DNA from: an uncultured Gemmatimonadales bacterium
GTDB lineage: Bacteria; Gemmatimonadota; Gemmatimonadetes; Gemmatimonadales; GWC2-71-9
Assembly (NCBI GenBank): GCA_963821385.1
Contig: CAWGDK010000005.1
Coordinates: forward strand, 31,538-95,537
Direction of reading: 5' to 3'
DNA: 64,000 nucleotides
Shown here: positions 7,185 through 26,722 of the stretch, in pieces
Layout: every line of letters starts with the position of its first letter
How positions within the stretch are numbered: position 1 is the first letter of the stretch
Notes under the pieces: generated by a model
Databases searched by the model: none
Told to the model about the DNA's origin: nothing
What the model saw: only the letters and a program-made list of their open reading frames with translations
Position numbers and translations under genes: made by a program

Positions 7185-7197
7185 GGAAGGCGGATCC

Positions 7198-10657: not shown

Positions 10658-11670
10658 CGGACGCTCCCATTCGCGTGCTGATGATCACGGCCGGTTGGCC
10701 GCAGCCGGGGCAACCGCAGACGACGCATTTCGTCAAACGCCAGGCGGAATTCCTGCGCAAGGCCGGTGTGCTGGTGGACGTGTTTCATTTCCGCGGCGCC
10801 AAGCGGCCCTGGAACTACGCCCGCGCGTGGCTCGACGTGCGACCGAAGATTCGCTCCGGCCAGCACGATGTGGTGCACGCCCAATTCGGCCAAAGCGGAA
10901 TCCTCGCGCTGCCCAAGCGCCTGCCGCTCGTCGTCACCCTGCGGGGCAGCGATATCCTCGGCATCGTCGGCTCGAATGGTCGCTACACGGCAGCGGGCAA
11001 GGTCTCACAATGGGTGACGCGACTGGCCGTTCGGCGCGCCGATGCCGTCGTGGTCGTCTCCGAGCACATGAAGGCCTACTTCGAGACCCGGGCTCCGGTC
11101 AGCGTGTTGCCGTCGGGCCTCGATTTCGATCTGTTCGGGACCATGCCGCGGGATGAAGCGCGCGCGCGGCTCGGGTGGCCTCTCGACAAGCGTCTGGTCC
11201 TCTTCGCCGGGAACCCCGACCAGCCGCGCAAACGATACGGGCTCGCGAAGGCCGCCGTCGACCTGGTCAACCGGACCCTCCCGGCCGAGCTCGTCGTCGC
11301 CTGGGGCGTGCCCCACACCGACGTGCCGCTCTACATGAATGCGTGCGACGCCTTCGTGTTCACCTCGATGCAGGAAGGCTCTCCCAACGTGGTGAAAGAA
11401 GCCCTGGCCTGTGACCTCCCCGTCGTGTCGGTCCCGATTGGCGACACGGCCGAACGGTTGCGTGGCATCGAAGGATGCGAGCTGGTGACCGACGAACGCC
11501 CGGAGGCGATCGCAGCCGCCCTCGAGCGCGTGCTGCGGCGCGGTCGGCGCGTGGCCGGGCGCGTCGCCGTGGCGCATCTGGCCGAGCAGGCCATCACGGC
11601 GCGACTGATCGATGTCTACCGCACCGTCATCGGTCGTCGAGGCTCCGTGGACGCGCTGGTGACGGCCTGA
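10654..11670 (+). CDS. glycosyltransferase family 4 (GT-B, group 1)
   Basis: ATGA overlap with the ATP-grasp stop. C-terminal E-x7-E-like block FVFTSMQEGSPNVVKEALACDLPVV. Confidence 0.8.
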   Translation: MTDAPIRVLMITAGWPQPGQPQTTHFVKRQAEFLRKAGVLVDVFHFRGAKRPWNYARAWLDVRPKIRSGQHDVVHAQFGQSGILALPKRLPLVVTLRGSDILGIVGSNGRYTAAGKVSQWVTRLAVRRADAVVVVSEHMKAYFETRAPVSVLPSGLDFDLFGTMPRDEARARLGWPLDKRLVLFAGNPDQPRKRYGLAKAAVDLVNRTLPAELVVAWGVPHTDVPLYMNACDAFVFTSMQEGSPNVVKEALACDLPVVSVPIGDTAERLRGIEGCELVTDERPEAIAAALERVLRRGRRVAGRVAVAHLAEQAITARLIDVYRTVIGRRGSVDALVTA

Positions 11671-12725
11671 TGCCCTCCCCTGCGACGCCCGCCCCTTTCG
11701 TTTCGATCGTCGTGCCGTGCCGCAACGAGGAGCATTACATCGCCGAATGTCTCGATTCGGTGCTCGCCTGCGATTACCCGCAGGACCGGCTCGAAGTCCT
11801 GGTGGTCGACGGTATGAGCGACGATGGCACGCGCCAGGTGCTCGCGGAGTACGCCACCAGGCACCCGCTGATCCGGATGGTCGACAATCCGCGCCGTATC
11901 ACTCCCGTCGCCCTGAACCTGGCGATTCAGGCCGCGCGGGGTGATGTGATCGTGCGCATGGACGCCCATGTCGTCTATCCCAAGAACTACGTGTCGCGCC
12001 TCGTCGCCGCCCTGGACGAATTCCAGGCCGACAACGTCGGCGCCGTGCTGCGTACCCTGCCGGCGAACCAACGGCCCATGGGACGCGCCATCGCGATCGG
12101 CATGTCGCACCCCTTCGGGGTGGGCACGTCCTACTTCCGGATCGGCACCGATCAGCCGCGGTGGGTGGACACGATCGCGTTCTTCTGCGTACGGCGGAAG
12201 ACGTTCGAGCGCGTCGGGCTGTTTGACGAAGAGCTGATCCGGCATCAGGACGGCGAGTTCAATGCGCGATTGATCGGCGCCGGCGGCCGCATCCTTTTGA
12301 TCCCGGATGTCGTCTCGTACTACTACGCTCGTTCCACGCTGCGACAGGTGGGCCGGATGTTCTATCAATACGGATACTTCAAGCCGCTGGTGGCCAAGAA
12401 GCTGGGCCGGTTCATGACGTTCCGGCAGCTCATTCCACCCGGGTTTGTCCTGGCTCTGGCCACAACCGCGATCGGAGCCCTGCTGTGGAAGCCCGCCCTG
12501 ATCCTGTTCGGTCTGGTCGCGGGGAGTTACGCGTTGGTGGTCGGCGGCTGCGCCATCCAGACGGCCTTCAAGGAAGGGCCCCGGACCGGCCTCGCGCTCG
12601 CCGCAGTCCTACCCGTGATTCACGTGAGTTACGGATCGGGATTCTGGCTGCGGGTGGTCGAGCTGCTGCTCCCCACGCGGCGCGGCGCGGCGGAGCGCGC
12701 CGCTGAGCTGCCGTTGTCACGCTAG
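11670..12725 (+). CDS. glycosyltransferase family 2 with C-terminal membrane helices
   Basis: FVSIVVPCRNEE, VVDGMSDDGT and VRMDAH (DxD-type) motifs. 1-nt overlap (TGATG) with the upstream stop. Confidence 0.85.
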   Translation: MPSPATPAPFVSIVVPCRNEEHYIAECLDSVLACDYPQDRLEVLVVDGMSDDGTRQVLAEYATRHPLIRMVDNPRRITPVALNLAIQAARGDVIVRMDAHVVYPKNYVSRLVAALDEFQADNVGAVLRTLPANQRPMGRAIAIGMSHPFGVGTSYFRIGTDQPRWVDTIAFFCVRRKTFERVGLFDEELIRHQDGEFNARLIGAGGRILLIPDVVSYYYARSTLRQVGRMFYQYGYFKPLVAKKLGRFMTFRQLIPPGFVLALATTAIGALLWKPALILFGLVAGSYALVVGGCAIQTAFKEGPRTGLALAAVLPVIHVSYGSGFWLRVVELLLPTRRGAAERAAELPLSR

Positions 12726-12731
12726 ACCGCC

Positions 12732-13526
12732 ATGCCCGCACCGCAGATCGCCGGGTTGATGTATCACGAAGTCACCGACGCGCCAGCCACCACGGGTTTT
12801 CAGCGACCCGGCGCGGTCGCGTATAAGCACTCCGTCGCGGCATTCGCGGAGCACCTGGCCCGCATCGCCGACGCACCGCACCGTCCCAGCCTCATTACCG
12901 ACGTGGATCTCCACGGCCCCGGGCGGCACGTCGTGTTGACCTTCGATGACGGGGGCAAGAGCGCGCTGGTGGCCGCGGAGCTGCTCGCCCGGCGGGGCTG
13001 GAAGGGCCATTTCTTCATCGTGACGAGCCTGATCGGCACCCCGACGTTCCTGGATGCGGCTGGCATTCGCGCCGTGCATGACGCAGGCCACCTGATCGGC
13101 AGCCATTCTCATACGCACCCGAACATCTTTCGCGACCAGTCGACGGCTCGCATGGTGGAGGAATGGCGCGTCAGTGCCGATATCCTGAGCCAGATCACCG
13201 GCGATCTGTGTGCGTCGGCATCCGTTCCCGGCGGAGACATATCGGCACGGGTGCTGGAGTCGGCGGACGCGGTGGGAATCCGCTATCTGTTCACATCAGA
13301 GCCGTGGCTGAGGCCACGCAGGATCGGCGACTGCGCGGTGCTGGGGCGTTACAGCGTCAAAGTGACTACGTCGGCGGCCCAAGTGAGCGCACTGGTGCGT
13401 TTCCGCGGCTGGGGGCGCGCCCTGGTGCGGCGACGCCTGAAGGTCTGGGCCACGCGGGCCCTGCCTCCTTTGTATCGACTCTATATCCGCGCCCGCACCA
13501 CTCCGGGGACCGAGCCGTCCGGCTGA
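12732..13526 (+). CDS. polysaccharide deacetylase (NodB homology domain)
   Basis: VLTFDDGGKS and GSHSHTHP metal-binding motifs. Confidence 0.8.
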   Translation: MPAPQIAGLMYHEVTDAPATTGFQRPGAVAYKHSVAAFAEHLARIADAPHRPSLITDVDLHGPGRHVVLTFDDGGKSALVAAELLARRGWKGHFFIVTSLIGTPTFLDAAGIRAVHDAGHLIGSHSHTHPNIFRDQSTARMVEEWRVSADILSQITGDLCASASVPGGDISARVLESADAVGIRYLFTSEPWLRPRRIGDCAVLGRYSVKVTTSAAQVSALVRFRGWGRALVRRRLKVWATRALPPLYRLYIRARTTPGTEPSG

Positions 13527-13554
13527 GCCTTGCTGCGCCGGGGACCGCTCGCGA

Positions 13555-16500
13555 TCAGTGGCAGTTCCCCGACCCGGAATTCGTGTACGAGGACCCCGCG
13601 ACCGGGACGAACTGCCAGGTATAGCTGGTGGCAGACAGGGTGAGCTTCAATACTCCATACGTGTGGCCCTCACGCACCTCGCTCAACGGGAAGATGTTGG
13701 TGAGGTCGCCACCGCTCTCCCCACCCATCCCCGCGATGATCGTGCGGATTCCGTTCGAAGGATCCGCGGTCCCGTCCGGCTTCATGGGGGCGATCACCTC
13801 ATACACGTGCCGGTGACCGTTGAGCACCAAGTCGGCCCCGGCAGCGTACAGGTCATCCCAGAACCGCCGCGCGCTCGTGGTCACCGCCCCGCCACTGCCC
13901 GTGCCGCCAATGGAGGAGTACAACGGGTGATGCCAGTAGGCGAGCGTGCACACGTTTTGGTGTGCGGCCAGGTCGGCGAGCAGCCAATTATCCTGCGCAG
14001 AGCCAGCGTCACTATTGATGTTGCTGTTCAGTACGATGATATGCCAGGAACCCAGATCGAAGCTGTAGTAGCCTTGTCCCGGGGTGCCCGCCGCCGCCCC
14101 GAAGTAGCCGAAGTACCCAGCGGCGTTGGCGGTGTTGTAGTCATGGTTCCCCGCTGACGGATGGGTGCGGGATTTGAAGGCACCCCACGTCGGGTTGTAG
14201 CAGTTGGTGTATTCGCTCGCCTTCCCGTTGGGATAGACGTTGTCGCCAAGGACGAAGACCGGCGGGGAGCCCGGCATCGCATTGATGACGGCCGCGGTGG
14301 CCGCGTCGTTGTTGCTGCCGCAGTCGGCGATATCGCCGGCCCCGACGAAGGTCACCGAGCTGCCGGCTGACGTTACAGTGACGGCCGCGGTCTGCGTCAG
14401 AGCGAGACCGCCGGCCGTGGCGGAGACCGTCTTGGTTCCGGTCGCGGTCGACGCCAGGGCGCCCGTCGCCACGCCGTTGCTGCCGGTAGGTCCCGACGGC
14501 TGCGTCAGTGTATTGCCGCTGCCCGTCGCCGCCAGCACCACGTTTGATCCGCTCACCGGATTCCCGAACGCATCCGTTACCGTCACCGTGATAGTGGAGG
14601 TCCCGCTGCCGGCGACAATCGAGGCCGGAGACGCGCTCACGGTGGAGACGCTGGCCGACACTGGACCGGCGGTCACGGCCACCACGGGTTTCTGGGTAAT
14701 CGTGATCCCGTTGGCGGTCGCCGTCACCGTTTTGTTCCCGGCGACAGTCGAGCTCAGACTCCCCGTGGCGACACCGCTGCCGTTCGCCGGAGCGGAGGGC
14801 TGCGTGACGGTATTGCCCGTCCCCGACACGGAGAGCGTGACCGTCGCTCCGACAACCGCGAAGCCACCCGCGTCCCGAGCGGTAACCGTGATGGTGGACG
14901 AGCCACTGCCGGCGGTGATCGACGCCGGTGCGGCCACGACCGTCGACTGCGCTGCGGACACGACTCCGGAGGTGACATTGAAGGCCGTCGATACCACGTC
15001 CGGCAGCCCACCCACCGAGGCCTTGAGCGTGTAGCCCGATCCCGTCTGGTTGATACTGAGGCTGGAGAATGTCGCCACGCCGTTCGAGGCCGATCCCGCA
15101 CCCCCGGTCAACGTTCCCCCACCGGCGTTGGTCCCGAACGTCAGCACGACTCCATTGCTGGCGCTGGTGACCCGGTTCCCGAACTGATCCCGGATCTCCA
15201 CCTGGACGGGCGGCGCCATGATCGTGCCGACCGTCATGCTGGTTGGCTGCACCAGGAAGCCCGTGCTGGTGGGATTTCCCGGGGTCACGGTCACCGTATC
15301 GGTCTGGGTGACTCCGGTCCCATCGATCGTGGCGGACAGGATCCGCACCCCGGTCAGAGTCGACGTGAGGGTTCCCGTCGCGGTGCCGTTGGACCCCGTG
15401 GGGCCGGCGGGCTGGGTGAGCGTGTTGGACGTTCCCGTCGCGTTCAGCACGACGTTGACGTTCGGAATCGGATTCCCTTGCTCGTCGCGCGCGGTCACCG
15501 TGATGGTCACCGGATTCGACCCCGCGCTCGCGACGACGCTGGTCGGGATGGCGACCACGGTCGACTGACTGACTGAGACCTCGCCGGGCTCCACCGTAAC
15601 GCCCGCGGTCTGCGTCACCGGGGTCCCACCCACGGCAGCCGATACGACCTTGGCCCCAGCCGCAGTCGAAGACATGGTTCCGGACGCCACGCCATTGGCG
15701 TCGGTCATAGCGACCGGCTGATTCAGCGTGTTGCCGCTGCCCGTCGCGGCGAGGACCACCGCCAAACCCGGGATCGCATTGTCGAACGTGTCCTTCGCCG
15801 TAACCGTGATCGCCGTCGTGACCCCACCGAAACTCGCGGCGATCGAACCGGGTGACGCGCTGACCAGTGACTTTGAGGCAGCAACGCCGGCTGGGGCCAC
15901 CGTCACCGTGGGTTGCTGAGCAACCAGCACACTGTTGATGGTGGCGCTCACCGTTTTGGCACCGCTGGCCGTCGAGCTAAGGCTCCCGGTCGCCACACCC
16001 CCCGCCCCGGTCAAGCCGGCCGGCTGGGTCAGAGTGTTTCCGGTGCCGCTCGCCGCGAGGGCCACGGTGGCCCCCGCCACCGGATTGTCGAACGCATCGC
16101 GGGCGGTCACCGTGATCGTGGCCGCGCTCGTCCCGCTGCTGGCCGTGATGCCCGCAGGGGCCACCACTGCGCTCGAGTGAGTCGCGGAGACCACCCCCGG
16201 AGTGATGGTGAACGGGTTCGACGTCCCACCGGTGATCCCGCCGGCCGTCGCGGTGAGCGTATAGCCGGCCGCGGCCTTGATCAGCACGAGGTCCGTGAAT
16301 GTGGCCTCACCGGCGACTGCGGCCTTGGTCATGGTGCCGGTCAAGGCGTCACTGCCCGGATTGGCGCCCAGCGCCACCGTCACATTGCCCGTGAAGGTGG
16401 TGAAGGTGTTGCCGAACGCGTCGCGCACGGCCGCTTTCACGGCCGGCGTGATCGTGGCACCCGCGACCGCCGTGGCGGGTTGGGACGTGAAGACCAGGAC

Positions 16501-17778
16501 ACCGTTCACGGCCGGCGTGACCGTGACGGCGGCCCCTTGCGTGAGACTGACGCCGCCGACCGATGCCCCGACGGTCTTGGATTCCGCAGCGGTCGAGCTT
16601 AGCGATCCCGTGGCCACCCCGACCGCGTTCGTCGGACCGACCGGTTGCGTCAGCGTGTTGCTGGAGCCGGTCGCCGTAAGGACCACACTGGCCCCCACCA
16701 CCGGATTGTCGAACGCGTCCCGCGCCGTCACGGTGATCGCCGTCGAGCTGGCACCAGTGCTGGCCATGATCGAAGTCGGCGCGGCTACGACGGTGGAGTG
16801 TCCTGGTGCCACCGGCCCCGCCAGGATCGTGATAGCGCTGGAGGTATCCGCCCCCAGGCCCGATCCGGAAGTGGTCAGGGTATAGGCCGTGCTCGCCTTG
16901 TCGAGACTCAAATCGGCAAAGTTGGCGGTGCCGCCGATCGCTGTGACCGTGGTGGTACCCGACAGGGTCCCGCCAGCCGGATTCGCGGCCAGCCCGATGG
17001 AAAGAGGACCGCTATACGTCGTCGCGAGGTTCCCCAAGACATCCCGCGTATTCACCACAATCGCCGGCGCGATCGCGACGCCGGCCCGCGCGGTGCCGGG
17101 GAGGGCCGTGAAGGCCACGCGGGCGGCAGGACCGGCGACAACATCGAACGACGCGCTCGCCGTTGAGGTGAGCGAGCCCGATGTCACGTACAACGTGTAG
17201 CCTGCCCCGCTCTTGTCGATGTGGAGATCAGCGAATGCCGCGACGCCATTCACGGCGGTCATGACGGTGGTCCCGCCGAGGGTCGTGCTCCCGGGATTCG
17301 TGGCGATCGCCGCGGTGATGACGCCCGAGAACGAGGTCGCGGTATAGCCGTGCGCGTCGCGCGCCGTCACCTCGACCCCGGGCGCGATGGACGATCCCGC
17401 GGTCACACTGCTCGGCTGCATGGTGAACACGAGGGCGGCCGCGGGACCCGCGATCACCGTGACGCCAACCGAACCAGTCTTGCCCTCGCTCGTCGCCGTG
17501 ATGGTCGCGGACCCGAGCGTCACCCCGCCCACCAGTCCCGCGGCACTCACGGTCACGACCGCGGAGTCCGTGGAGCTCCACGTAACGGTACGACCAGTCA
17601 GCACGGCGCCATTGGCGTCGCGCAACGTCACCTGCAGCTGGATCGCGGTCCCCACGGCGAACGGTGCCGGCACGGGGACTTCGACTGTCTCGACTGGCGT
17701 CGGCGGTCCCGACGAGTCGGTCGCACAGGCAGCCAGTACGGCGGCGAGAACCAACGTGCGACGCACGGATGCGGCCAA
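13555..17778 (-). CDS. giant surface lipoprotein: Big_2 module plus about 10 Ig-like repeats plus C-terminal metallophosphoesterase
   Basis: Signal/lipobox LVLAAVLAAC. Big_2-like TVTWSSTDSAVVTVSAAGLV..ITATSEGK. Two alternating ~95-aa repeat types. C-terminal motifs GAGDIADC, LGDNVYPNG, GNHDY, VLNSN, GHRHVYE. SD GAGG lies 5 nt upstream of TTG 17778. Confidence 0.85.
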   Translation of the reverse strand: MAASVRRTLVLAAVLAACATDSSGPPTPVETVEVPVPAPFAVGTAIQLQVTLRDANGAVLTGRTVTWSSTDSAVVTVSAAGLVGGVTLGSATITATSEGKTGSVGVTVIAGPAAALVFTMQPSSVTAGSSIAPGVEVTARDAHGYTATSFSGVITAAIATNPGSTTLGGTTVMTAVNGVAAFADLHIDKSGAGYTLYVTSGSLTSTASASFDVVAGPAARVAFTALPGTARAGVAIAPAIVVNTRDVLGNLATTYSGPLSIGLAANPAGGTLSGTTTVTAIGGTANFADLSLDKASTAYTLTTSGSGLGADTSSAITILAGPVAPGHSTVVAAPTSIMASTGASSTAITVTARDAFDNPVVGASVVLTATGSSNTLTQPVGPTNAVGVATGSLSSTAAESKTVGASVGGVSLTQGAAVTVTPAVNGVLVFTSQPATAVAGATITPAVKAAVRDAFGNTFTTFTGNVTVALGANPGSDALTGTMTKAAVAGEATFTDLVLIKAAAGYTLTATAGGITGGTSNPFTITPGVVSATHSSAVVAPAGITASSGTSAATITVTARDAFDNPVAGATVALAASGTGNTLTQPAGLTGAGGVATGSLSSTASGAKTVSATINSVLVAQQPTVTVAPAGVAASKSLVSASPGSIAASFGGVTTAITVTAKDTFDNAIPGLAVVLAATGSGNTLNQPVAMTDANGVASGTMSSTAAGAKVVSAAVGGTPVTQTAGVTVEPGEVSVSQSTVVAIPTSVVASAGSNPVTITVTARDEQGNPIPNVNVVLNATGTSNTLTQPAGPTGSNGTATGTLTSTLTGVRILSATIDGTGVTQTDTVTVTPGNPTSTGFLVQPTSMTVGTIMAPPVQVEIRDQFGNRVTSASNGVVLTFGTNAGGGTLTGGAGSASNGVATFSSLSINQTGSGYTLKASVGGLPDVVSTAFNVTSGVVSAAQSTVVAAPASITAGSGSSTITVTARDAGGFAVVGATVTLSVSGTGNTVTQPSAPANGSGVATGSLSSTVAGNKTVTATANGITITQKPVVAVTAGPVSASVSTVSASPASIVAGSGTSTITVTVTDAFGNPVSGSNVVLAATGSGNTLTQPSGPTGSNGVATGALASTATGTKTVSATAGGLALTQTAAVTVTSAGSSVTFVGAGDIADCGSNNDAATAAVINAMPGSPPVFVLGDNVYPNGKASEYTNCYNPTWGAFKSRTHPSAGNHDYNTANAAGYFGYFGAAAGTPGQGYYSFDLGSWHIIVLNSNINSDAGSAQDNWLLADLAAHQNVCTLAYWHHPLYSSIGGTGSGGAVTTSARRFWDDLYAAGADLVLNGHRHVYEVIAPMKPDGTADPSNGIRTIIAGMGGESGGDLTNIFPLSEVREGHTYGVLKLTLSATSYTWQFVPVAGSSYTNSGSGNCH

Positions 17779-17820
17779 TCAGACCTCAGGTCGCGATGTG
17801 TGGCGTGAATGCAACACAGC

Positions 17821-17835
17821 ACCCCAAAATGGGGT
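17821..17835 (-). terminator. possible weak hairpin terminator between the two giant genes
   Basis: Minus strand ACCCCA-UUU-UGGGGU followed by GCUGUGUUGCAUU. It lies 60 nt after the stop at 17895. Confidence 0.3.
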
Positions 17836-17894
17836 CGGCCCGAATTCTAGTGGCAAGATTCAGACCTGACAGGGGTTCGTCTGTGAAGGGCCCT

Positions 17895-20800
17895 TCAATG
17901 ACAGGAGCTGGTGCCGGAATCCGCGTACGTCCCCTGCCCCTGCGCGTGCAGGAACTCCCAGCGATAGGAGTTTGCGTACAGGGTCAGCCGGATTACACCC
18001 CGCGAGAAATTGCCGTTGTCGCTGGCCTCGACGTTGGGCGGGGAGTTGACGTAGTTGGCGTGGGTCTCCCCCCCACCGGTCCCCACGATGAACTCCCGGA
18101 TGCCGGAGGCGCTCGCATTGCCCAGGGAGTCTTGCTGGGCAAATCGCTCATACAAGTGATCGTGCCCGTTGATGACGACCTCGGCCCCACCGTTCTGCAA
18201 CGCCTGCCACAGGCGTCTGATTCGCGACGATCCGCCATTCGACGGCCCGGATGTGAACAAGGCGCGGTGCCAGATGGCCAGGACACACTGGTTGGCCCGT
18301 CCCACGAGATCGCTCTGCAACCACGTCAGCTGGCCGGATGCGGGGTTGGTGACCCCGGAATCGCTGTTGAGGACGACGACGTGCCACGTGCCCAGGTCAA
18401 AACTGTAATACCCGAATCCGTTGCCCAGTGGATCGGCGACCGCCGGGCCGAAGTAGGCCATGTAGGGTGCGGCTGTGCTGCTGCTGTCGTATTCGTGATT
18501 CCCGCTCACCGGACGGGTCCGCGCCTTGTGCCGCCCCCAGGTGGGATCATAGCAATTCGTGAAATTCGTGGCCGTCCCATTCGGATACGCGTTGTCGCCG
18601 GCGGCGAACACGACGCCCGGAAGGCTGTCGACCTGATTGGCGGTAGCGTCGTCTCGAATCGAGTTGCAGTCGGCGATATCGCCGGCACCGACCAGGGTCG
18701 GTACGACTACCGCGGCTCCCGTCTGGATGATGGCGGTCCCTCCCGCCGTCGCCGAAATCGTCTTGGCCTCGACCACGGAGGAATTGAACGCCGCGGCAAA
18801 CACCCCGCTCGCATTCGTGTTGCCCGACGCGGATGGGCTGAATCCATTCCCTGTCCCGCTCGCCGACAGCACGACGGGCGACCCGCTGACGAGATTGCCG
18901 AACTGGTCCTTGACGGTGACCGTCACGGTGGACGCGTGGATGGCGGGAACGCAGGAGAACGCGCACTGGCCGATGGTGTCGGTGGCGGCGACCAGGCTCG
19001 AGAGCGAGGCATCGACCCCATCGGCGGCGATGGCAAAAGCCGCGCTGGTGACGGGCGTCAATCCACTGGAGGTCGCGTGCAGGGTGTAGCCCGCAGCGGC
19101 TTTGTCGATACTGAGGTTCGAGAAGGTCGCCACCCCGCTCGCCGCGGAAACCGAGGTGGTCCCGGACAGATTGCCGCTTCCCGGGTTCGCCGCCAGGGCC
19201 ACGGTGACGGTGTTCGAGGCGGTCGTGACGCGGTTGCCACCGAGGTCGCGAATCTCCACTCGCACCGGCGGTGCGATCGCGCCCCCCGCAGTCGCGTCGG
19301 AAGGCGGCGTCAGGAATCCCAGCTGGGCGGTCGCACCGACGCTGATATTGAACGTGCTCGAGGTGGCATCGTCGAGTCCCGAGGCCGTCGCCGTCAGCCG
19401 ATACCCCGTGCCCGCGCTGTCGATCTGCAGGGAGCTGAACGTCGCCACGCCACCGGTGGCGGCGAGAGTAGTGGTGCCAGAGAGCGTTCCATTGTTCGGG
19501 TTCGTGCCGATCGCAACCGTCACACTATTGGTGGCTCCGCTCACGCGGTTTCCGCCGGCGTCCTGGATCTCGATCTTCACGGCCGGTGTCAGTATCGCGC
19601 CACCGGCAGCGTTCGGCGGTTGAACCAGGAAGCCAAGCTTCGCGGCCGCCCCGACGGTGATGCTGAACGTGGTCGACGCTGCGCCCGCCAGCCCGCTGGC
19701 GGTGACGTTCAACGTATAACCCACGCCCGCGCTGTCGATGCTCAGGGTACTGAACGCCGCCACGCCGCCGACGGCGGCCACCGTCTTGGTCCCGGAGAGC
19801 ACCCCGCTGTTCGGATTGTTCCCGAGCGAGACCGTCACACTGTTGGTCGCGCCCGGCACCAGATTCCCCCCCGCGTCCTGAATCTCCACGTGAACGGACG
19901 GGCTGATCGGGGCGCCGCCGGGCGTCGTGGACGGCTGGACGACAAACGAGAGTTTGACCGCAGTCCCGATGATGATGTCGAAGCCGCTCGACGTCGACCC
20001 CGTAAGCCCTGTGGCGGTCGCGCTCAGGGTGTAGGCGGCCCCGGCGTTGTCGATGCTCAAATCCGAGAATGTCGCCAATCCGCCTGCGGACGAGACGGGA
20101 GTCGTCCCGGACAACGTCCCGCTCCCCGGGTTGTTCGCAATCGCCAACGCGATACTGTGCGAACCGGTGGTGACGCGGTTCCCACCGGCATCCCGGACCT
20201 CCACCTGTACCGCCGGCGCGATCGTCGCCCCGCCCCCGGTGTTGGACGGTTGCGTGCGGAATCCAAGTCGTGCCGCCGGCCCGACGGCCACGCTGAATAC
20301 GGTTGATGTGTCTCCGGTCAGCCCTGTCGCTGCGGCGGTCAGCGTGTAGCCCGTCGCCGCGCTGTCGACCGACACGTCATTGAAGGTGGCCACACCGGAG
20401 GATGCGGCTCGGGAGGTCGTGCCGCTGAGGGTTCCGTTGTTCGGGTTGGCGCCGAACGCCAGCGTAATGTTGTTGGAGGCCGCCGTCACTCTGTTGCCGC
20501 CACCGTCTTGGACCTCGACTTGGACCGCCGGGGAGATCGTGGCGCCACCGTTGGCGCTCGAAGGCTGAACCAGGAATGCCAAGTGTGCCGCCGCGCCGAC
20601 GGCGATGGTGAAGGCCCCCGATGTCGCACTGCTCAATCCTGTGGCGGAGGCCGTCAGGGTGTAGCCCGTGCCGCTCTTGTCGATGCTCAGACCGGCGAAT
20701 GTCGCAATCCCGGACACCGCCGAATGGAGCGTCGTGCCCGACAGGGTGCCGCTCGCCGGGTTGGTTCCGATCGCCACCGTGACGGTCCCCGTGAAGCTCG

Positions 20801-22490
20801 TGTCCGTATTACCGAGACTGTCCCGCGCGGTGACTTGCACGGCCGGGGTGATCGGCGACGCGGCAGCGGTGTTGGACGGTGAGGTGGTGAACACCAGTTG
20901 CGTGGCCGCTCCCGGCGTCACGGCGAAGCTGATGCTCGTATCCGGGACGAGCCCGCTGCTTGTCGCGCGAAGTCGATAGCTGCCGCCGGACTGGTTGACG
21001 CTCAGGTCGTTGAACGTCGCGACCCCGGCCGAGGCGGCCCTGCTCTTGGTCCCCGACAACGTTGCGCCACCGGCGTTCAAGAGCGCGATGGTCACACTGT
21101 TGTTCGCGGTGGCGACGCGATTGCTGAAGGCGTCCAGCACCTCGACCTGGACGGCGGGGGCGATGGTGATTCCCGCGGTCGTGCCCGTGGGGTCCGTGAG
21201 GAATGACAACCGGCTCGCGACTCCCGGCGTGATGCTGAAGTCGTTCGAGACCGCCGTGGTGAGCCCGGTGGCCGCGGCCGCGAGCGAATAGCCCGTGCCG
21301 GCCTTGTCGATACTCAGGGACGAAAAGGCCGCCACGCCGGCCACCGCCGGCAGGGTCGTGGTACCGGAGAGCACCCCGCCGCTCGGGTTGTCGAGGATCG
21401 CAATGGTTACACTATTCGTCGCCGTCGTCTCCCGATTGCCGAAGGCGTCTTGGATCTCTATCTGCACGCCTGGCGTCACCATCGCGCCCGCGACGGTCGT
21501 CGACGGTTGGGCGGCAAACGCCAGCACCGCCGCCGCCCCGGGGGTGACGGTGATGGTGTCGGTTTGGGTGACCACGACGCCGGCGATGGTGGCGGATGCC
21601 ACTTTCGTCTCCGCCACGGTCGAGCTGACCGCACCCGTCGCTACGCCCGCGACGTTGGTGGTGCCCACCGGCTGTGTGATGGCATTGCCCGATCCCGTTA
21701 CCGAGAGAACAACGGACGCGCCGGCGACGGGATTCCCCTGGGAGTCCCGCGCGGTGACGGTAATCGTCGCCGCACTCGCCCCCGAGCTGGCGGTGATCGC
21801 CGTTGGCGCCGCCGTGAGGCTCGACTGCGTGGCGGAAATCCCCCCCGCGATGACGTTGAAGGCGCTCGACGTGGTGCCCGTGAGCCCGGTGGCGCCCGCC
21901 GTCAGCGTGTACCCTGTGCCGGCCTTGTCGAGACTGAGGTTGCCGAATGTGGCCACTCCAGCCACGGCGGCCTTGGTCGTCGTCCCTGAGAGCGTGCCGC
22001 CCGCCGGATTGGCGCCGATGGCGATCGTGATGGTGGCGGTAAACGAGGTCGCGGTGTTGCCGAACGCATCTTGGGCGTTCACCTGCACCGCTGGGGCGAT
22101 CGGCAACCCCGCGCCCGTGGTCGTCGGCTGAACCACGACCACGAGTCGCGTGGCCGTGCCGGCGTTCACCGTGATGATCGCCGTCCCGGTCTTCCCTTCG
22201 CTGGTGGCGGTGATCGTGACGACACCGGGACGCTTCCCGCTCACCAGGCCCGTCGCATCCACCGTGGCACTGGTTGTGTCGCTGCTGGACCAGGCAATGG
22301 CGCGTCCGGTGAGACTGGTGCCGTTCGCATCCTTCAGAACGGCCGTCAGCTGCAGGGTGGCGCCAGCCGCTAGCGGCGCGGTGAGCGGGCTCAGGGTGAC
22401 GGACGCCACCGGCGCCGCCGGCCCGATATCCGAGCCGCACGCGACGGCGAGTATCGCCACCCAGCACCGAAATCGGGTCGCCCGATTCAT
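17895..22490 (-). CDS. giant surface lipoprotein: Big_2 module plus about 11 Ig-like repeats plus C-terminal metallophosphoesterase (paralog of 13555..17778)
   Basis: Start taken at ATG 22490 (MNRATRFRCWVAILAVACGS lipobox, GGGAGG upstream); the longest ORF extends to 22553. C-terminal motifs GAGDIADC, AGDNAYPNG, GNHEY, VLNSD, GHDHLYE. Confidence 0.85.
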   Translation of the reverse strand: MNRATRFRCWVAILAVACGSDIGPAAPVASVTLSPLTAPLAAGATLQLTAVLKDANGTSLTGRAIAWSSSDTTSATVDATGLVSGKRPGVVTITATSEGKTGTAIITVNAGTATRLVVVVQPTTTGAGLPIAPAVQVNAQDAFGNTATSFTATITIAIGANPAGGTLSGTTTKAAVAGVATFGNLSLDKAGTGYTLTAGATGLTGTTSSAFNVIAGGISATQSSLTAAPTAITASSGASAATITVTARDSQGNPVAGASVVLSVTGSGNAITQPVGTTNVAGVATGAVSSTVAETKVASATIAGVVVTQTDTITVTPGAAAVLAFAAQPSTTVAGAMVTPGVQIEIQDAFGNRETTATNSVTIAILDNPSGGVLSGTTTLPAVAGVAAFSSLSIDKAGTGYSLAAAATGLTTAVSNDFSITPGVASRLSFLTDPTGTTAGITIAPAVQVEVLDAFSNRVATANNSVTIALLNAGGATLSGTKSRAASAGVATFNDLSVNQSGGSYRLRATSSGLVPDTSISFAVTPGAATQLVFTTSPSNTAAASPITPAVQVTARDSLGNTDTSFTGTVTVAIGTNPASGTLSGTTLHSAVSGIATFAGLSIDKSGTGYTLTASATGLSSATSGAFTIAVGAAAHLAFLVQPSSANGGATISPAVQVEVQDGGGNRVTAASNNITLAFGANPNNGTLSGTTSRAASSGVATFNDVSVDSAATGYTLTAAATGLTGDTSTVFSVAVGPAARLGFRTQPSNTGGGATIAPAVQVEVRDAGGNRVTTGSHSIALAIANNPGSGTLSGTTPVSSAGGLATFSDLSIDNAGAAYTLSATATGLTGSTSSGFDIIIGTAVKLSFVVQPSTTPGGAPISPSVHVEIQDAGGNLVPGATNSVTVSLGNNPNSGVLSGTKTVAAVGGVAAFSTLSIDSAGVGYTLNVTASGLAGAASTTFSITVGAAAKLGFLVQPPNAAGGAILTPAVKIEIQDAGGNRVSGATNSVTVAIGTNPNNGTLSGTTTLAATGGVATFSSLQIDSAGTGYRLTATASGLDDATSSTFNISVGATAQLGFLTPPSDATAGGAIAPPVRVEIRDLGGNRVTTASNTVTVALAANPGSGNLSGTTSVSAASGVATFSNLSIDKAAAGYTLHATSSGLTPVTSAAFAIAADGVDASLSSLVAATDTIGQCAFSCVPAIHASTVTVTVKDQFGNLVSGSPVVLSASGTGNGFSPSASGNTNASGVFAAAFNSSVVEAKTISATAGGTAIIQTGAAVVVPTLVGAGDIADCNSIRDDATANQVDSLPGVVFAAGDNAYPNGTATNFTNCYDPTWGRHKARTRPVSGNHEYDSSSTAAPYMAYFGPAVADPLGNGFGYYSFDLGTWHVVVLNSDSGVTNPASGQLTWLQSDLVGRANQCVLAIWHRALFTSGPSNGGSSRIRRLWQALQNGGAEVVINGHDHLYERFAQQDSLGNASASGIREFIVGTGGGETHANYVNSPPNVEASDNGNFSRGVIRLTLYANSYRWEFLHAQGQGTYADSGTSSCH

Positions 22491-22525
22491 GCTCCTCCCG
22501 TCTCTACCGTAGATTGATCGGCGCC

Positions 22526-23749
22526 ATGCCGACCCGTCCGCCGCTGCTGCCACGCTCGATCGCCCGGCTCGCCCTCGGGGCCGCGCTCGGATTCATTCTC
22601 CTGACCACGCTGGCACCCTTCCCCGGCGCACGCGCGCCGGACTTCGTCGGGTGTCTGATTTGCGGCACCCGAGGCTCGGCGGACGCGCTCGTCAATCTCC
22701 TCCTGTACATACCCCTTGGCGCCGCCCTGATGATAAACGGACGGGCGGGCGGACGGACGGTCGCCCTGGCCGGAATGTTGTCGGCGGGTATCGAATTCCT
22801 TCAGATCTTCATTCCGGGCCGTGATCCCAGCCTGGGAGACGTATTCTTCAATACCGGCGGCGCCGCGGTGGGCCAGGTCACCGTGCACTTCCTGGCGCGA
22901 TGGGCGACTCCGGACGCGCGCACCGCCGCACGCCTTTCGGTCGCCGCCGCCTTGACGGCGCTCGGTGTGTTCGGTCTGACGGGATGGCTGCTGCGGCCAG
23001 CGCTCCCCGTATCCGCGTTTCGCGCCTGGTACACGGCCGATCGACCAGATCTCGAGTTTTACCACGGCCGTGTGCTGAGCACGACCCTGGGGGCGGTTCC
23101 GTTCAGCACCGCCGACGTTCCGAACCCCGGTGAAGTGCGCCACCTGCTCCTCACCGGGGCCCCCTTGCATATCCTGGCAGTCGCCGGCCCGCGCGTCCGC
23201 GCGCTCGGCCCGTTGTTTGTGATCGAAAACCGATGGGGAGAAGAGATCTTTCTCCTCGGCCCTGATCGCGACGACCTCGTGCTGCGGTATCGCACGCGAG
23301 CCGCCGCGCTGCGACTCGATCAGCCGGACCTGCGGCTGCGTGACGCCTTTGCCGGAGTCGCTGCCGGCGACACCCTGCGAATCGAGGTGAGGCGGGAGCA
23401 CGGTGCGTATTGCCTCGCGGTCAACCGAGCAGGTGCGTGCGGACTCGGGTTCACGCTGGGCAGCGGCTGGGCCGTGCTGTTGTACCCGAGACACTTTCCG
23501 CCGTGGCTGCAGCAGCTGTTGAGCATCGGGTGGGTGGCCGGCATCGCCTTCCCGGTGGGATTCTGGGCGCGGCGGCGTTGGGAAAGCGGGCTCGCCTGGG
23601 TCGTGCTCGGGAGCGGGCTGGCTCTCGTCCCACTGTTCACAGCCCTGGTTCCGACGCCGGCCAACCAGTGGGTGGGCGCGGGCGCCGGGGCGCTGTCCGG
23701 AGTGGCGCTCGGGTTGCTGGTCGGTCGCCGGAATACGCAGACGCGCTAG
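22526..23749 (+). CDS. VanZ-like family membrane protein with extended C-terminal region
   Basis: N-terminal VanZ-like pattern (LLTTLAPFP..NLLLYIPLGAAL..IEFLQIFIPGRDPSLGDV) and terminal TM helices. ATG 22526, or TTG 22514. Confidence 0.6.
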   Translation: MPTRPPLLPRSIARLALGAALGFILLTTLAPFPGARAPDFVGCLICGTRGSADALVNLLLYIPLGAALMINGRAGGRTVALAGMLSAGIEFLQIFIPGRDPSLGDVFFNTGGAAVGQVTVHFLARWATPDARTAARLSVAAALTALGVFGLTGWLLRPALPVSAFRAWYTADRPDLEFYHGRVLSTTLGAVPFSTADVPNPGEVRHLLLTGAPLHILAVAGPRVRALGPLFVIENRWGEEIFLLGPDRDDLVLRYRTRAAALRLDQPDLRLRDAFAGVAAGDTLRIEVRREHGAYCLAVNRAGACGLGFTLGSGWAVLLYPRHFPPWLQQLLSIGWVAGIAFPVGFWARRRWESGLAWVVLGSGLALVPLFTALVPTPANQWVGAGAGALSGVALGLLVGRRNTQTR

Positions 23750-25188
23750 CGCGCCCGACTCGTCAGGAGAAACGTGTCGAACGCGGGGCCCGTTCGCGGC
23801 GGCGTCCGGGTCACCCGTCCCTGCGGGACGGGCGGAGCGATGCCGGTCAGCGGAACACGGATCGGTGTACCCCGGTACACCCCACTCACCACCGGGGGAT
23901 CAAACAACGCCTGCACGTTGCGTATCTCGTAGCGATCGCCGGCCCGCAAGACCGTGCCGACATCCACCGCCACAGCGGCGCGCCCCTCCCAGTTGTACAC
24001 GACGATGTGCGCGCGGCCGGCTTCGTATTTATTGGCGCGCACAAACACCCGTGTGAGCGCCGGTCGCTCCGATTCTACACGATCCCGGCCACCGAGGCCG
24101 CTGGCGTGTTGCCACCCATTCCAGTCGTACGCCCGGTCCTCGAATCGCCACGCTCGCGCAGTGGCATCCCGCCCCCAGTGGTTTCCCGACCACTGGTAGT
24201 GCTGGTCGAGCCTCGCCCCGCCTACCTTTACGACGTCGCGACTTCCGATAAACGTGTTTCCCTCAACGATCGCGTGCATCCAGGGCTCGACCATCTCGAG
24301 CCCGATCTTGCCTCCGGCGGCATAGTTGTCGCGCAACACCAGGTCGCGGTTGTTTTGGGGAGCGTACTTGCCAACCCGCAGATTGATCCCGTCCCGACCG
24401 GAGAAGTAGAGCATGTTGCCGATGCCGGCCATCCCCTCGGTGGGGACCGGCGCGTTGAAGATCAGGTTCTCTCGCGCGGCGGCCACGGTGGAAATCGTTC
24501 CGTTGTTGAAGGCCACGTTTCCTTCGACCCGGATATTGCGAATGGTCGGATTGTTGCGACTGGCGTAGACCTGAATGCCGCGGGCGAGGTTGTTGAAGAA
24601 CACATTGTCCGCGATCACCTTCGTGCCAGTTTCATTGTGCACGTACACGCCGTGATCGAGGTTTTCATGCGTCCCGTTGTTGTAAATGATGCACCCGTAC
24701 AACTCGGCATCGACCGCCGGAGTCCAGAAACTGACTCCCTGCGTCCCTGCGTCGTGAATGATCAGATTGATGAACCGGCCGTGAGCGGTGTTGGCTTGCA
24801 GCCCGTACGTCTCCGGGGTCGATTGCATGATCTCGAATCCCCAGAACGTCAGGTAGGAACCCTCCGCACGCAGGGTCCCGTCGATCGTGGCCCGTTCGCC
24901 CGGCCACTGCCGAAACACGATGGCCCGGCCCGGTAATCCCGCGAGCGCCGTCCGGAACGCGCCGCGATAGGTCCCGCCCCGCAGCCACACCGTATCACCG
25001 GGCTGCAAACGCCCCGCCGCGCCGGACAGGGCGGTCTCCAGCGTCCACGGATGTTCCGCCGAGCCCGTGCCGCCGGCGGACGCCGTCGGCGCGACGTAGT
25101 GGCCGCCATGCGCCGGGATGGCCGGGACGGTGCCCGCCGGTGAAGGCCGCGCAATCACCGCCGTGGCTGCCAGGACGGCAACCACCAT
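23746..25188 (-). CDS. secreted right-handed parallel beta-helix protein (pectate-lyase-fold), paralog 1
   Basis: Colinear with 25205..26722 (PGDTVWLRGGTYRGAF/AGDTVWIRGGTYPGSF, PGERATIDG, repeated NN/HD rungs). Start taken at ATG 25188 (MVVAVLAATAVIA signal), just after the upstream stop; the longest ORF reaches 25305. Confidence 0.7.
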   Translation of the reverse strand: MVVAVLAATAVIARPSPAGTVPAIPAHGGHYVAPTASAGGTGSAEHPWTLETALSGAAGRLQPGDTVWLRGGTYRGAFRTALAGLPGRAIVFRQWPGERATIDGTLRAEGSYLTFWGFEIMQSTPETYGLQANTAHGRFINLIIHDAGTQGVSFWTPAVDAELYGCIIYNNGTHENLDHGVYVHNETGTKVIADNVFFNNLARGIQVYASRNNPTIRNIRVEGNVAFNNGTISTVAAARENLIFNAPVPTEGMAGIGNMLYFSGRDGINLRVGKYAPQNNRDLVLRDNYAAGGKIGLEMVEPWMHAIVEGNTFIGSRDVVKVGGARLDQHYQWSGNHWGRDATARAWRFEDRAYDWNGWQHASGLGGRDRVESERPALTRVFVRANKYEAGRAHIVVYNWEGRAAVAVDVGTVLRAGDRYEIRNVQALFDPPVVSGVYRGTPIRVPLTGIAPPVPQGRVTRTPPRTGPAFDTFLLTSRAR

Positions 25189-25204
25189 CGGCCACGCCGG
25201 CGTG

Positions 25205-26722
25205 CTACGGAGCCGCACTCGTGAGCAGAAAGACATCGAAATCCGGACCGGTCGTGGGCGGCAGCCGCTGCATTGAGCGCCCGATCGTCGGCGGCGGGGC
25301 CACACCGTTCATGGGGATCGCGATGGTGCCACCCGCATAGGTCCCCGACACGACGGGGGCATCGTACACTCGCTGGACGTTGCGGACTTCGTAGTGATGC
25401 CCCGGGGTCACGATGCTCGAGACATCGACGTTCACCGGGTTGTCATGGCCGAAATTGTAGACCACGATGAAGGCTCGTCCCGCCTCGTACTGGTTGGGCC
25501 GCAGGAACACCCGCGTCGCCGTCGGTGCCCCGCTGACCACAGAGTCGGTCGCCCCCAGACCGGTGGCCGCTTTCCAGGCGGCGAACGAATAGCCGAGGCC
25601 ATCCTGCTCCCATGCGTTCGCGGATGAATCGCGGTGATAGGTGTTCCCCGACCAGGTATAGGTGTTGACCAGAGGCCCACCCGTATGCACCACGTCGGTC
25701 GAACCGATAAAGACGTTGTTCATCACCGTGGCCTGCGCCCACTGATACTGCATTTCGAGCCCGACCGTCCCGCCCACGGCGAAATTGTTCTCGATGTCGA
25801 TACCCTTGTTGAGCAGCGCACTGTCGGACACGTCGTAGTTGCCAAGCCGGAAATGGATACCGTCTTCGCCGGGCGAGAAGTACAGCAGGTTGTCTCTTGC
25901 CACCATGCCGGTAATCACGGTCTGCGCGCTCATCAAGAGATTCACCTCGCTGGAGCCCGTGGAGATGGTGCCATTGTTGAACGAGATGTTGCCTGCGACC
26001 TCGAAGTTTTGGATGGGACTTGTACCGCCTTCATACACCTGGATGCCGCGAGCGAAATTGTTGAAGAAAACGTTGTCCGTGATGTATTTGGTGCCGGCAG
26101 TCGAATTGTGTGCGTAGACACCGTGATCGAGGTTGTCGTGGAAGCCGTTGTTGTAGACGATGCTGCCGTACAGCTCGACGCCATTGCCGGAACCGGTCGC
26201 CATGCTCACACCCGAGGTCCCGGCGTCGTGCAGCACCAGATTGATAAACTTGCCGTTCAACGTGTTCGCCTCGAGCGTCCGGTCCACCACCTGGATCGGA
26301 TGGGACTGCATGATCTCGAACCCCACGAACCACAGGTTCGAGCCGGTCGCGGCCAGGGAGCCGTCGATGGTCGCTCGCTCTCCCGGATACTGACGGAACT
26401 GAATCGGCAGACCGGCTTGACCGTTGAGCGACGTGCGGAAACTCCCCGGGTACGTGCCGCCCCGAATCCAGACGGTATCGCCCGCCTGCAACTGGTGGAC
26501 GTGTCCACCCGCCAGGGCCGTGGCCAGGTCCCAGGGCGCGTCGGTGGCCCCCGAGCCGGACGTCAGCCCGTACGGCGGGGGATACACGTAGTAGCCCGCA
26601 TGCGTCCCAGGGGGAGGCGGAGGAGGCGGGGGCGGGGGCGGCGTCCCGCCGTCGGTCTTGCAGCCAGCCACCAACAGGGCGCCAACGCACAGCAAGAGCC
26701 CCATTGGGGCCCGATAGGGCAT
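25205..26722 (-). CDS. beta-helix lipoprotein with poly-proline linker, paralog 2
   Basis: MPYRAPMGLLLCVGALLVAGC lipobox, P12 linker, then a beta-helix core with repeated rungs (IVYNNGFHDNLDHGVY, FFNNFARGIQVY, ISFNNGT). The ORF track start GTG 26731 is also possible. Confidence 0.75.
   Translation of the reverse strand: MPYRAPMGLLLCVGALLVAGCKTDGGTPPPPPPPPPPPGTHAGYYVYPPPYGLTSGSGATDAPWDLATALAGGHVHQLQAGDTVWIRGGTYPGSFRTSLNGQAGLPIQFRQYPGERATIDGSLAATGSNLWFVGFEIMQSHPIQVVDRTLEANTLNGKFINLVLHDAGTSGVSMATGSGNGVELYGSIVYNNGFHDNLDHGVYAHNSTAGTKYITDNVFFNNFARGIQVYEGGTSPIQNFEVAGNISFNNGTISTGSSEVNLLMSAQTVITGMVARDNLLYFSPGEDGIHFRLGNYDVSDSALLNKGIDIENNFAVGGTVGLEMQYQWAQATVMNNVFIGSTDVVHTGGPLVNTYTWSGNTYHRDSSANAWEQDGLGYSFAAWKAATGLGATDSVVSGAPTATRVFLRPNQYEAGRAFIVVYNFGHDNPVNVDVSSIVTPGHHYEVRNVQRVYDAPVVSGTYAGGTIAIPMNGVAPPPTIGRSMQRLPPTTGPDFDVFLLTSAAP

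Follow-up and report, generated by a model that had tools for sequence, protein, structure and literature searches.

Putative purple acid phosphatase-type enzymes on long lipoprotein Ig stalks in a conserved Gemmatimonadales surface locus

The purple acid phosphatases (PAPs) include kidney-bean PAP, wheat PAPhy, mammalian TRAP/ACP5, the proteins annotated as "acid phosphatase type 7," Mycobacterium tuberculosis Rv2577/MmpE, and the soil-metagenome enzyme Pho18. Phosphatase, phosphodiesterase, and phytase activities are known among bacterial PAP-like enzymes, one of which is associated with the cell wall (PMC7642983, PMC6355987). Here we describe two adjacent giant lipoproteins, P1 and P2, and a short-stalk paralogue, P3, which are encoded in a 64-kb window (the whole stretch of DNA that was analyzed) of contig CAWGDK010000005.1 from an uncultured Gemmatimonadales bacterium. 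The C-terminal heads of the giants have the metallophosphoesterase fold in common with the PAPs (PMC7642983, PMC6355987). Both groups also have a β-sandwich domain directly N-terminal to the catalytic domain and an extracytoplasmic location, the latter being a prediction in the case of the giants. Unlike PAPs, the giants have a lipobox anchor, 10 to 18 extra immunoglobulin (Ig)-like domains, four family-specific Cys residues, and a terminal Cys-His, and neither Pur_ac_phosph_N nor Metallophos_C was found by Pfam in P1, P2, or P3 at an E value of ≤0.01. P1 and P2 furthermore lack the equivalent of His296 of kidney-bean PAP (PMC2267794), and the similarity of the giants to solved PAPs amounts to just an E value of about 1e-7 and 16 to 21% identity.

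Several other described proteins resemble the giants in part. Short Gemmatimonadota lipoproteins of ~390 amino acids, which consist of a Big_2 and a metallophosphoesterase domain and of which P3 is an example, share with them the head family (55 to 65% identity), the lipobox, the membrane-proximal Big_2 domain, and the C-terminal Cys-His. However, they carry one or two Ig modules rather than 11 to 19, and their lipobox Cys begins the motif C-T-[ED]-R rather than C-x-x-D-x-x-G-P. Like the intimin and invasin rods, the giants present a C-terminal functional head on serial Big_1/Invasin_D3 domains, but they have a lipobox anchor and an enzyme head instead of an inverse-autotransporter β-barrel, a LysM anchor, or a C-type-lectin tip. 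The combination of an enzyme, Ig-like spacers, and a covalent envelope anchor is also seen in multi-Ig surface enzymes of Gram-positive bacteria, such as BgaA of Streptococcus pneumoniae and BbgIII of Bifidobacterium bifidum, whose Ig-like domains resemble one type of stalk repeat (type B, below) in Foldseek comparisons. Staphylococcus aureus AdsA, a wall-anchored metallophosphoesterase nucleotidase, has a comparable enzyme/anchor design. In BgaA, BbgIII, and AdsA, the catalytic domain is N-terminal or central and an LPXTG motif is located at the C terminus, whereas the giants have an N-terminal lipid anchor, a distal enzyme, and a diderm host. Literature searches for the combination of lipobox, Ig rod, and phosphoesterase found no description of it, and the public annotation of the giants is automatic only ("adhesin/invasin" or "invasin domain 3-containing protein"). 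What is new is the joining of a PAP-type phosphatase to a lipoprotein Ig rod; the proteins are already present in databases under automatic names, are built from known parts, and are widespread in one bacterial order.

We propose that P1 and P2 would each be composed of an N-terminal lipid anchor in the envelope, a membrane-proximal Big_2 domain, a stiff rod of 10 or 11 Big_1-type Ig domains, and a C-terminal binuclear PAP-type metallophosphatase. Together with P3, which has two Ig modules, and the stalk-less polyproline forms of related genomes, they would hold phosphatase heads at fixed but different distances from the membrane, estimated at ~0 to >60 nm. As the rod would be longer than the periplasm, the giants would probably be displayed on the cell surface. 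Their heads could then hydrolyze phosphate esters within a polysaccharide coat or at its outer margin, and the chief effect would be the release of phosphate from organic phosphorus that is unable to reach an enzyme at the level of the membrane. We give this proposal as a whole, that is, lipid-anchored and rod-borne phosphatases with a scavenging role in or at the coat, a probability of about 0.5; lipidation, exposure on the surface, the geometry of the rod, the catalytic activity, the substrate, and the functional link to the polysaccharide are the parts of it that we infer.

Predicted phosphatase heads of P1, P2, and P3

All three genes are located on the minus strand. P1 (13555..17778, stop codon included) encodes 1407 amino acids from a TTG start, as called from the open reading frame (ORF), Pfam matches, and full-length homologues. 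P2 (17895..22490) encodes 1531 amino acids from an ATG at 22490, in a frame that is open as far as 22553, and P3 (28728..30146) encodes 472 amino acids, comprising a lipobox, two Big_2-like modules, and a PAP-type head. P2 and P3 are 48% and 56% identical to P1, respectively, and the exact P3 protein is also present in one public sequencing run. None of the three proteins has a match in NCBIfam. An earlier note, made from the sequence alone, had described both giants as a lipobox, one Big_2 module, 10 or 11 Ig repeats, and a C-terminal metallophosphoesterase, and the ORFs, the lipobox pattern, Pfam, and hidden Markov models (HMMs) of the repeats all bear this out. Long plus-strand ORFs within P1 and P2 (for instance, 17664..20306) were rejected as antisense artifacts of a coding sequence rich in Ala, Gly, Thr, and Ser, since the profile and homologue evidence is all on the minus strand. 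A promoter and terminator scan of 13300..22800 gave a yield no higher than that in shuffled controls.

The PAP-type head occupies residues 1137 to 1407 of P1 (13558..14370, minus strand) and residues 1262 to 1531 of P2 (17898..18707, minus strand). Pfam Metallophos (PF00149) matched P1 with an E value of 6e-8 (residues 1148 to 1326) and P3 with an E value of 4e-9; the match to P2 (E value of 4e-4) scored 21.3 bits, which is marginally below the 21.5-bit cutoff. In a sequence search of solved structures, PAPs were the only significant matches (wheat phytase 6git, E value of 1e-7; kidney-bean PAP, E value of 2e-5), and all five PAP motifs align, with GAGD/GDLG, GDNVY/GDLSY, GNHD/GNHE, YWHHPLY/LMHSPLY, and GHRHVYE/GHVHAYE as the query/PAP pairs. 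An AlphaFold2 model of the last Ig domain and the head of P1 had a predicted local distance difference test score (pLDDT) of 90.4. When the modeled head was compared with the Protein Data Bank by Foldseek, the top 30 matches were plant or mammalian PAPs or phytases (E values of 4e-17 to 1e-12), and these were followed by PhoD (rank 31), GAP50 (rank 32), Lmo2642, and GpdQ, while the Ig domain separately matched intimin and invasin. The N-terminal accessory position is filled by a Big_1/Big_2 β-sandwich, and the Foldseek alignments to plant PAPs cover both domains. No PhoD or PhoD_N domain and no 5'-nucleotidase C-terminal domain was found by Pfam, and PhoD is just a distant fold match.

The seven PAP metal ligands are present in P1 (D1149, D1179, Y1182, N1211, H1283, H1322, and H1324), P2 (D1271, D1299, Y1302, N1331, H1408, H1443, and H1445), and P3 (D220, D248, Y251, N280, H352, H387, and H389) and are 87 to 98% conserved across 376 related domains. 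In the same domains, four Cys residues (P1 residues 1153, 1193, 1277, and 1406) are 97 to 99% conserved, which fits an extracytoplasmic, disulfide-bonded enzyme. The C-terminal end had been read as SG.(S/N)CH; its Cys-His is indeed conserved, with the Cys present in 367 of the 376 domains and the His in 320 of the 322 that reach the end (His1407 in P1), but the motif as a whole is better written G-[ST]-x-x-C-H. Judged by motifs, ligands, and modeled fold, the heads of P1, P2, and P3 are predicted PAP-type metallophosphoesterases, and they would be expected to contain a binuclear metal site and to be catalytically active. This agrees with the earlier description of the heads as metallophosphoesterases with intact metal ligands, to which Pfam, the PAP alignment, Foldseek, and the conservation in 376 domains all point. 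The Pfam search and structure prediction that the earlier note had suggested recovered the fold and conserved ligand residues; neither a missing fold nor unconserved metal ligands, which it had named as the outcomes that would speak against it, was seen.

Two details of the earlier motif list do require revision. The sequence GD-IA-DC in place of GDxHG had been singled out as an oddity, but PAPs are defined by precisely this pairing of GDxxY with a motif I that has no His (PMC7642983). A motif I of this kind is normal in these enzymes because the motif II Tyr serves as a ligand instead, and GDIADC is an ordinary example. VLNS, listed as motif IV, is not that motif; the actual one, WH(H/R/K), is located downstream (AYWHH, AIWHR, and AYWHK in P1, P2, and P3, with ligand His residues 1283, 1408, and 352, respectively). 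The active-site geometry was nonetheless worth the look that had been recommended on account of motif I, but the departure from the PAP norm in P1 and P2 concerns the His296 equivalent. In kidney-bean PAP, His202, His295, and His296 form hydrogen bonds with a substrate analogue, and His296 is invariant among characterized PAPs (PMC2267794). Aligned with P1, His295 and His296 are at positions +9 and +10 from the motif IV His. P3 has His361 and His362 at exactly these positions, and a His202 equivalent is present in P1, P2, and P3. A His at +10 was found in 109 of 132 proteins of <500 amino acids but in only 5 of 76 heads with an N-terminal extension of >900 amino acids, 57 of which have Gly at this position. 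This near-absence compared with the short forms sets the long-stalk heads apart as a distinct subtype.

The loss of one PAP active-site His in P1 and P2 could also be taken as a sign that the tip has become an adhesin, which binds a ligand through a metallophosphoesterase-like domain without catalysis in the way of GAP50, a nonenzymatic protein with a PAP fold. GAP50 is indeed among the fold matches, and relatives of the giants are publicly annotated as "adhesin/invasin." On the other hand, the seven metal ligands and the His202 equivalent are intact in all three proteins, and Pfam detected no inverse-autotransporter barrel or lectin tip. The heads are also under strong purifying selection: compared with the P1 and P2 orthologues of L001, one of the five closest genomes, the ratio of nonsynonymous to synonymous substitution rates (dN/dS) was 0.06 to 0.11 in the heads and 0.15 to 0.24 in the stalks (0.15 in the P1 stalk), with purifying selection indicated for both parts. 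We therefore regard a noncatalytic adhesin as very improbable.

Ig stalks, lipoprotein anchor, and the range of stalk lengths

Two types of stalk repeat, A (Big_1-like) and B, were resolved with HMMs built from the window's own repeats, the period of which is ~105 amino acids. In P1, a membrane-proximal Big_2-type domain (residues 28 to 110; 17449..17697, minus strand) was recognized by an HMM made from the Big_2 domains of P1 and P2, the latter of which matches Pfam Big_2. It is followed by 10 Ig-like repeats (residues 111 to 1130; 14389..17448, minus strand), six of type A and four of type B, in the order B,B,A,B,A,A,A,B,A,A, and Pfam found Big_1 in 7 stretches (E value of 1e-70) as well as Invasin_D3. 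P2 has a Big_2 domain at residues 27 to 110 (22161..22412, minus strand; Pfam E value of 4.6e-13) and 11 repeats at residues 111 to 1256 (18723..22160, minus strand) in the order B, A, nine B, and A, as supported by the repeat HMMs, AlphaFold2, and Foldseek. Pfam also matched Big_1 in P2 and scarcely recognized the B-type repeats. An AlphaFold2 model of two consecutive B repeats (P2 residues 630 to 836) consisted of all-β sandwiches (pLDDT of 96.7; predicted template modeling score of 0.81) and matched Ig-like domains of glycoside hydrolase family 2 enzymes, the S-layer protein SbsC, and InvD in Foldseek. The last A-type repeat of P2 (18723..19020), beside the head, has an insertion with two extra Cys residues (GQCAFSCVP) that is absent from the other repeats. 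In P3, our own HMM placed Big_2-like modules at residues ~40 to 121 and 127 to 208, with a weak Pfam Big_2 match; there are thus two such modules and not three, as had been proposed.

Tandem Repeats Finder detected no DNA-level repeat of ~315 bp in the genes of the giants, which indicates that the Ig arrays are old and diverged rather than an assembly artifact. Recent repeat expansion and assembly collapse were ruled out on the same ground. The same tandem pair of giants is present in the five closest genomes (L001 to L005; Gemmatimonadaceae or Gemmatimonadales). A neighbor-joining tree of the heads contains a clade with the P1-type heads of six genomes and a separate, more divergent clade with those of the P2 type. 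These separate clades, together with the 48% identity between the two giants, imply that the duplication is old and that both copies were retained. Among the orthologues in L001 to L005, the number of repeats is 10 to 12 for the P1 type and ranges from 11 to at least 18 for the P2 type.

The N termini of P1, P2, and P3 have a basic region, a hydrophobic stretch, and a lipobox-like pattern with a terminal Cys, and the lipoboxes were called with a PROSITE-style regular expression, that is, at the level of pattern only. The signal peptide and lipobox of P1 (residues 1 to 18; 17725..17778, minus strand) end in VLAA-C18 followed by C-ATDSSGPP, those of P2 (22437..22490, minus strand) end in LAVA-C18 followed by C-GSDIGP, and the lipobox of P3 is ISTA-C28; the giants would be lipidated at Cys18. 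The pattern was found in 61 of 117 giants of >1200 amino acids. The consensus after it is C-[ATS]-[STA]-D-x-x-G-P, or C-x-x-D-x-x-G-P in its simplest form, with Asp at +4 in 59 of these 61 proteins, Gly at +7 in 49, and Pro at +8 in 46 and with variable adjoining positions. In the C-T-[ED]-R motif of the short forms, an acidic residue at +3 is present in 81 of 91 proteins. Gemmatimonadota are members of the Fibrobacteres-Chlorobi-Bacteroidetes (FCB) group, and the lipoprotein export signal of Bacteroidetes has two or more acidic residues, preceded by Lys or a polar residue, at positions +3 to +6 relative to the Cys (PMC5080379). The conserved motif of the giants is placed like this signal and may be a lipoprotein sorting signal of Gemmatimonadota, of either direction. 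A type IX secretion C-terminal domain and a PEP-CTERM signal were both rejected, as the metallophosphoesterase domain extends to the final Cys-His (the sequence was read by eye, with no dedicated search).

The head family is large, with at least 7,900 clusters at 90% identity at an E value of 1e-5; an exhaustive search for the head returned 14,313 clusters at 50% identity at an E value of ≤1e-3 and 3,724 at an E value of ≤1e-30. Most of the close relatives are the Gemmatimonadota proteins of ~390 amino acids with Big_2 and a phosphoesterase, which are annotated as "acid phosphatase type 7," "Ig-like domain-containing protein," or "alkaline phosphatase," and the family also occurs in Chloroflexota, Micromonospora, Dactylosporangium, Acidobacteriota, and cyanobacteria. 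In its various architectures, the head is placed at the N terminus, ahead of a long tail, or at the C terminus, or is present in 2 to 4 copies per protein. Many members (P0121 to P0151) are of the last kind, with 2 to 4 phosphoesterase domains in one polypeptide. In about 10% of the head domains, ligands are replaced (Asp by Asn in motif I, Asn by Asp in motif III, and His by Arg or Lys), and these domains may be degenerate copies.

In a search with full-length P1, proteins of the giant architecture proved to be common among metagenome-assembled genomes of Gemmatimonadales. Of 118 new cluster representatives, 65 have an N-terminal extension of >600 amino acids and a C-terminal head; the last two residues are Cys-His in nearly all of these and Cys-Asn in a few, and a lipobox can be recognized in most. 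Among the 55 complete giants, defined by a lipobox and a C-terminal head, 10 repeats were found in 22 clusters, 11 in 1, 12 in 8, 13 in 4, 14 in 4, 15 in 9, 16 in 1, 17 in 2, and 18 in 4. The complete 10-repeat homologues (22/22) are ~1396 to 1419 amino acids long and 57 to 91% identical to P1, and this constancy of 10 repeats down to 57% identity speaks for selection on length. About 50 of the top full-length matches (among P0282 to P0385) are proteins of 1,700 to 2,460 amino acids that contain only 14 to 24 B-type Ig repeats and no enzyme head, and many of them end 7 or 8 residues past the last repeat (...AFNI[NLF]); these are gene fragments or else form a family of their own with Ig domains only. 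At the other end of the range, some related loci encode a lipoprotein of 302 to 305 amino acids with a lipobox, 8 to 10 prolines, and a head but no Ig domain. Across related genomes, one head type is thus found on no Ig domain, on 1 to 3 Big_2 modules (the number for a 560-amino-acid form being taken from its length), or on 10 to 18 Ig repeats. The claim that the locus encodes one enzyme on spacers of very different lengths was hence correct for the window and can be extended to this wider series.

Invasin rises by ~3.6 nm per Ig domain, and we estimate from this that P1 and P2 would form extended rods of ~40 to 45 nm. A rod of ~40 nm, built from 11 or 12 domains, is longer than the typical width of the periplasm. 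This length argues against the alternative that the proteins are periplasmic or anchored in the inner membrane and that the Ig array, instead of being a spacer, would, for example, bind carbohydrate or peptidoglycan or pack laterally. The discrete repeat classes of 10 to 18, with 10 held down to 57% identity, fit selection on length, and the presence of the same head on 0 to 18 domains likewise speaks for a spacer. A periplasmic location would be the default for lipoproteins of diderm bacteria, and it would accord with the resemblance of the B-type Ig domains to accessory domains of glycoside hydrolases and with N termini that depart from the Bacteroidetes surface-export signal (PMC5080379). 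On balance, we consider it unlikely.

The conserved locus and the proposed role of the phosphatases

A Wzx/Wzy-type exopolysaccharide cluster (1157..13526, plus strand) is convergent on P1 and encodes an AsnB-like amidotransferase, Wzx, Wzy, an ATP-grasp protein, glycosyltransferases of families 4 and 2 (GT4 and GT2), and a polysaccharide deacetylase. The amidotransferase resembles the enzyme of the XrtA/PEP-CTERM system, and Wzy is polymerase-like. Three proteins of the cluster (332, 520, and 252 amino acids; 4879..7184 and 5..1003, plus strand) have only faint P-loop or kinase-like matches. On the other side, a VanZ-like membrane protein (22514..23749, plus strand; Pfam VanZ E value of 1e-10) is encoded divergently upstream of P2, so that P2 and P1 would form a two-gene unit. 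Its annotated start is only ~23 bp from the P2 start codon, in contrast to 178 to 385 bp in related loci, and one of the two start codons is therefore probably located further in. A minus-strand ORF in this region (22487..23494, 335 amino acids) is considered spurious, as it has no Pfam match, is rich in Arg, Gly, and Gln, and overlaps the real plus-strand VanZ gene.

Beyond VanZ, the minus strand encodes three right-handed β-helix proteins of the Pel9A-like or pectate-lyase-like type (23746..28454), P3, a pyrroloquinoline quinone-type glucose/sorbosone dehydrogenase (GSDH), HflX, and MgsA. Two of the β-helix proteins have a lipobox and one has a Big_2 domain, and their orthologues are annotated Pel9A-like_beta_helix. 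The gene for the Big_2 and β-helix lipoprotein (26936..28454, minus strand) is frameshifted between 28045 and 28089, in a GC-rich linker coding for Pro and Ala; the alignment of an intact orthologue of 603 amino acids from locus L084 switches from frame -3 (28352..28089) to frame -1 (28045..26939). The break could stem from slippage or an error in sequencing, or the gene could be a pseudogene. The rest of the window is occupied by housekeeping genes, including those for alanyl-tRNA synthetase, RecA, FtsK, AccC, and a PilT-like ATPase.

Four related loci (L083 to L086), the giants of which are only 37 to 60% identical to P1, have the same arrangement, although not all of them extend across every gene and the position of the short head varies. 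The order is HflX, GSDH, the Big_2 and Pel9A-like β-helix protein, two more β-helix genes, the short head, VanZ on the opposite strand, and 1 to 3 giants, followed by deacetylase, GT2, GT4, ATP-grasp, P-loop protein, Wzy, and Wzx. In the window and in all four loci, VanZ keeps its position and the giants are located between it and the deacetylase end of the exopolysaccharide cluster. Altogether, nine related genomes appear to share the placement of the giants between VanZ and a Wzx/Wzy cluster. The cluster adjoins the giants in L083, L084, and L086, and the sequence of L085 covers only its deacetylase end; in L001 and L005, ORFs at the position of the cluster match by size and strand. Pel9A-like β-helix lipoproteins and shorter or stalk-less heads are close by wherever the related sequence reaches that far. 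The giants are thus a fixed but numerically variable component of a conserved Gemmatimonadales cell-surface locus. VanZ-1 genes are statistically associated with exopolysaccharide genes (PMC12419801).

This context supports the part of the earlier note that placed the action of the enzymes on an extracellular polymer layer, as the giants stand between VanZ and the Wzx/Wzy cluster and near Pel9A-like β-helix lipoproteins, while their localization and substrate are predictions. The main rival to phosphate scavenging is close to that idea. According to it, the heads would act as phosphodiesterases or phosphatases on the exopolysaccharide that the neighboring cluster produces and would remodel or trim those of its substituents or linkages that contain phosphate, alongside the Pel9A-like enzymes and with different heights serving different depths. 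The strict position of the giants between the exopolysaccharide cluster, VanZ, and the β-helix lipoproteins, in every locus with enough flanking sequence, would be well explained in this way. The kinase-like P-loop proteins of the cluster also favor it, since a sugar or polymer kinase among them would make phosphorylation of the coat possible. The loss of the His296 equivalent in P1 and P2 suggests a nonclassical substrate, and one bacterial PAP-like enzyme has diesterase activity (PMC7642983). However, the scanned genes of the window include no recognizable Stealth-, LicD-, or TagF-type phosphotransferase, and small lipoproteins or secreted proteins of the same head family are very widely distributed in other phyla (Micromonospora, Chloroflexota, and cyanobacteria). 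Action on the bacterium's own polymer therefore seems doubtful to us, if less so than the other alternatives.

Several observations weigh against phosphate scavenging by surface-displayed giants. P1 (C-ATDSS) and P2 (C-GSDIG) each have one Asp (+4) in the region where the Bacteroidetes surface-export signal has two or more acidic residues (PMC5080379). The length of the rod is an estimate. P1 and P2 have no His anywhere in the loop that corresponds to His295 and His296, and with the loss of the His296 equivalent, their activity or substrate may be different from that of classical PAPs. No pst, phoU, or phoBR gene was found in the 64-kb window, so that a phosphate-scavenging role is without regulatory support there, and the neighborhood of one short-form homologue (P0104) contained nothing related to phosphate. 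Finally, the conserved gene order is known from a single bacterial order, and shared descent rather than function could account for part of it.

A more far-reaching version of the proposal, which we put forward only tentatively, is that the number of Ig domains acts as a molecular ruler. One head would be presented as a lipoprotein at graded heights (0, 1 to 3, or 10 to 18 or more Ig domains; ~3 to >60 nm) through the coat encoded next door, with copy number and length retuned between lineages (1 to 3 giants per locus). The result would be a tiered enzyme layer matched to the thickness of the coat, in which the long-stalk active site, without its His296 equivalent, might be adapted to a different and possibly polymeric substrate.

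In summary, we describe a large conserved family of predicted PAP-type phosphatases that would be tethered on rods of defined length and that are a fixed part of an exopolysaccharide locus. Their head subfamily is without a solved structure and differs from the canonical enzymes at a second-shell His found in every characterized PAP. Gemmatimonadota are among the most abundant soil phyla, and phosphorus acquisition in these bacteria is poorly understood. If the proposed function is correct, the giants would illustrate the way in which a diderm bacterium places an enzyme with respect to its own coat, and their natural stalk-length series could be used to test whether height above the membrane matters to extracellular enzymes.

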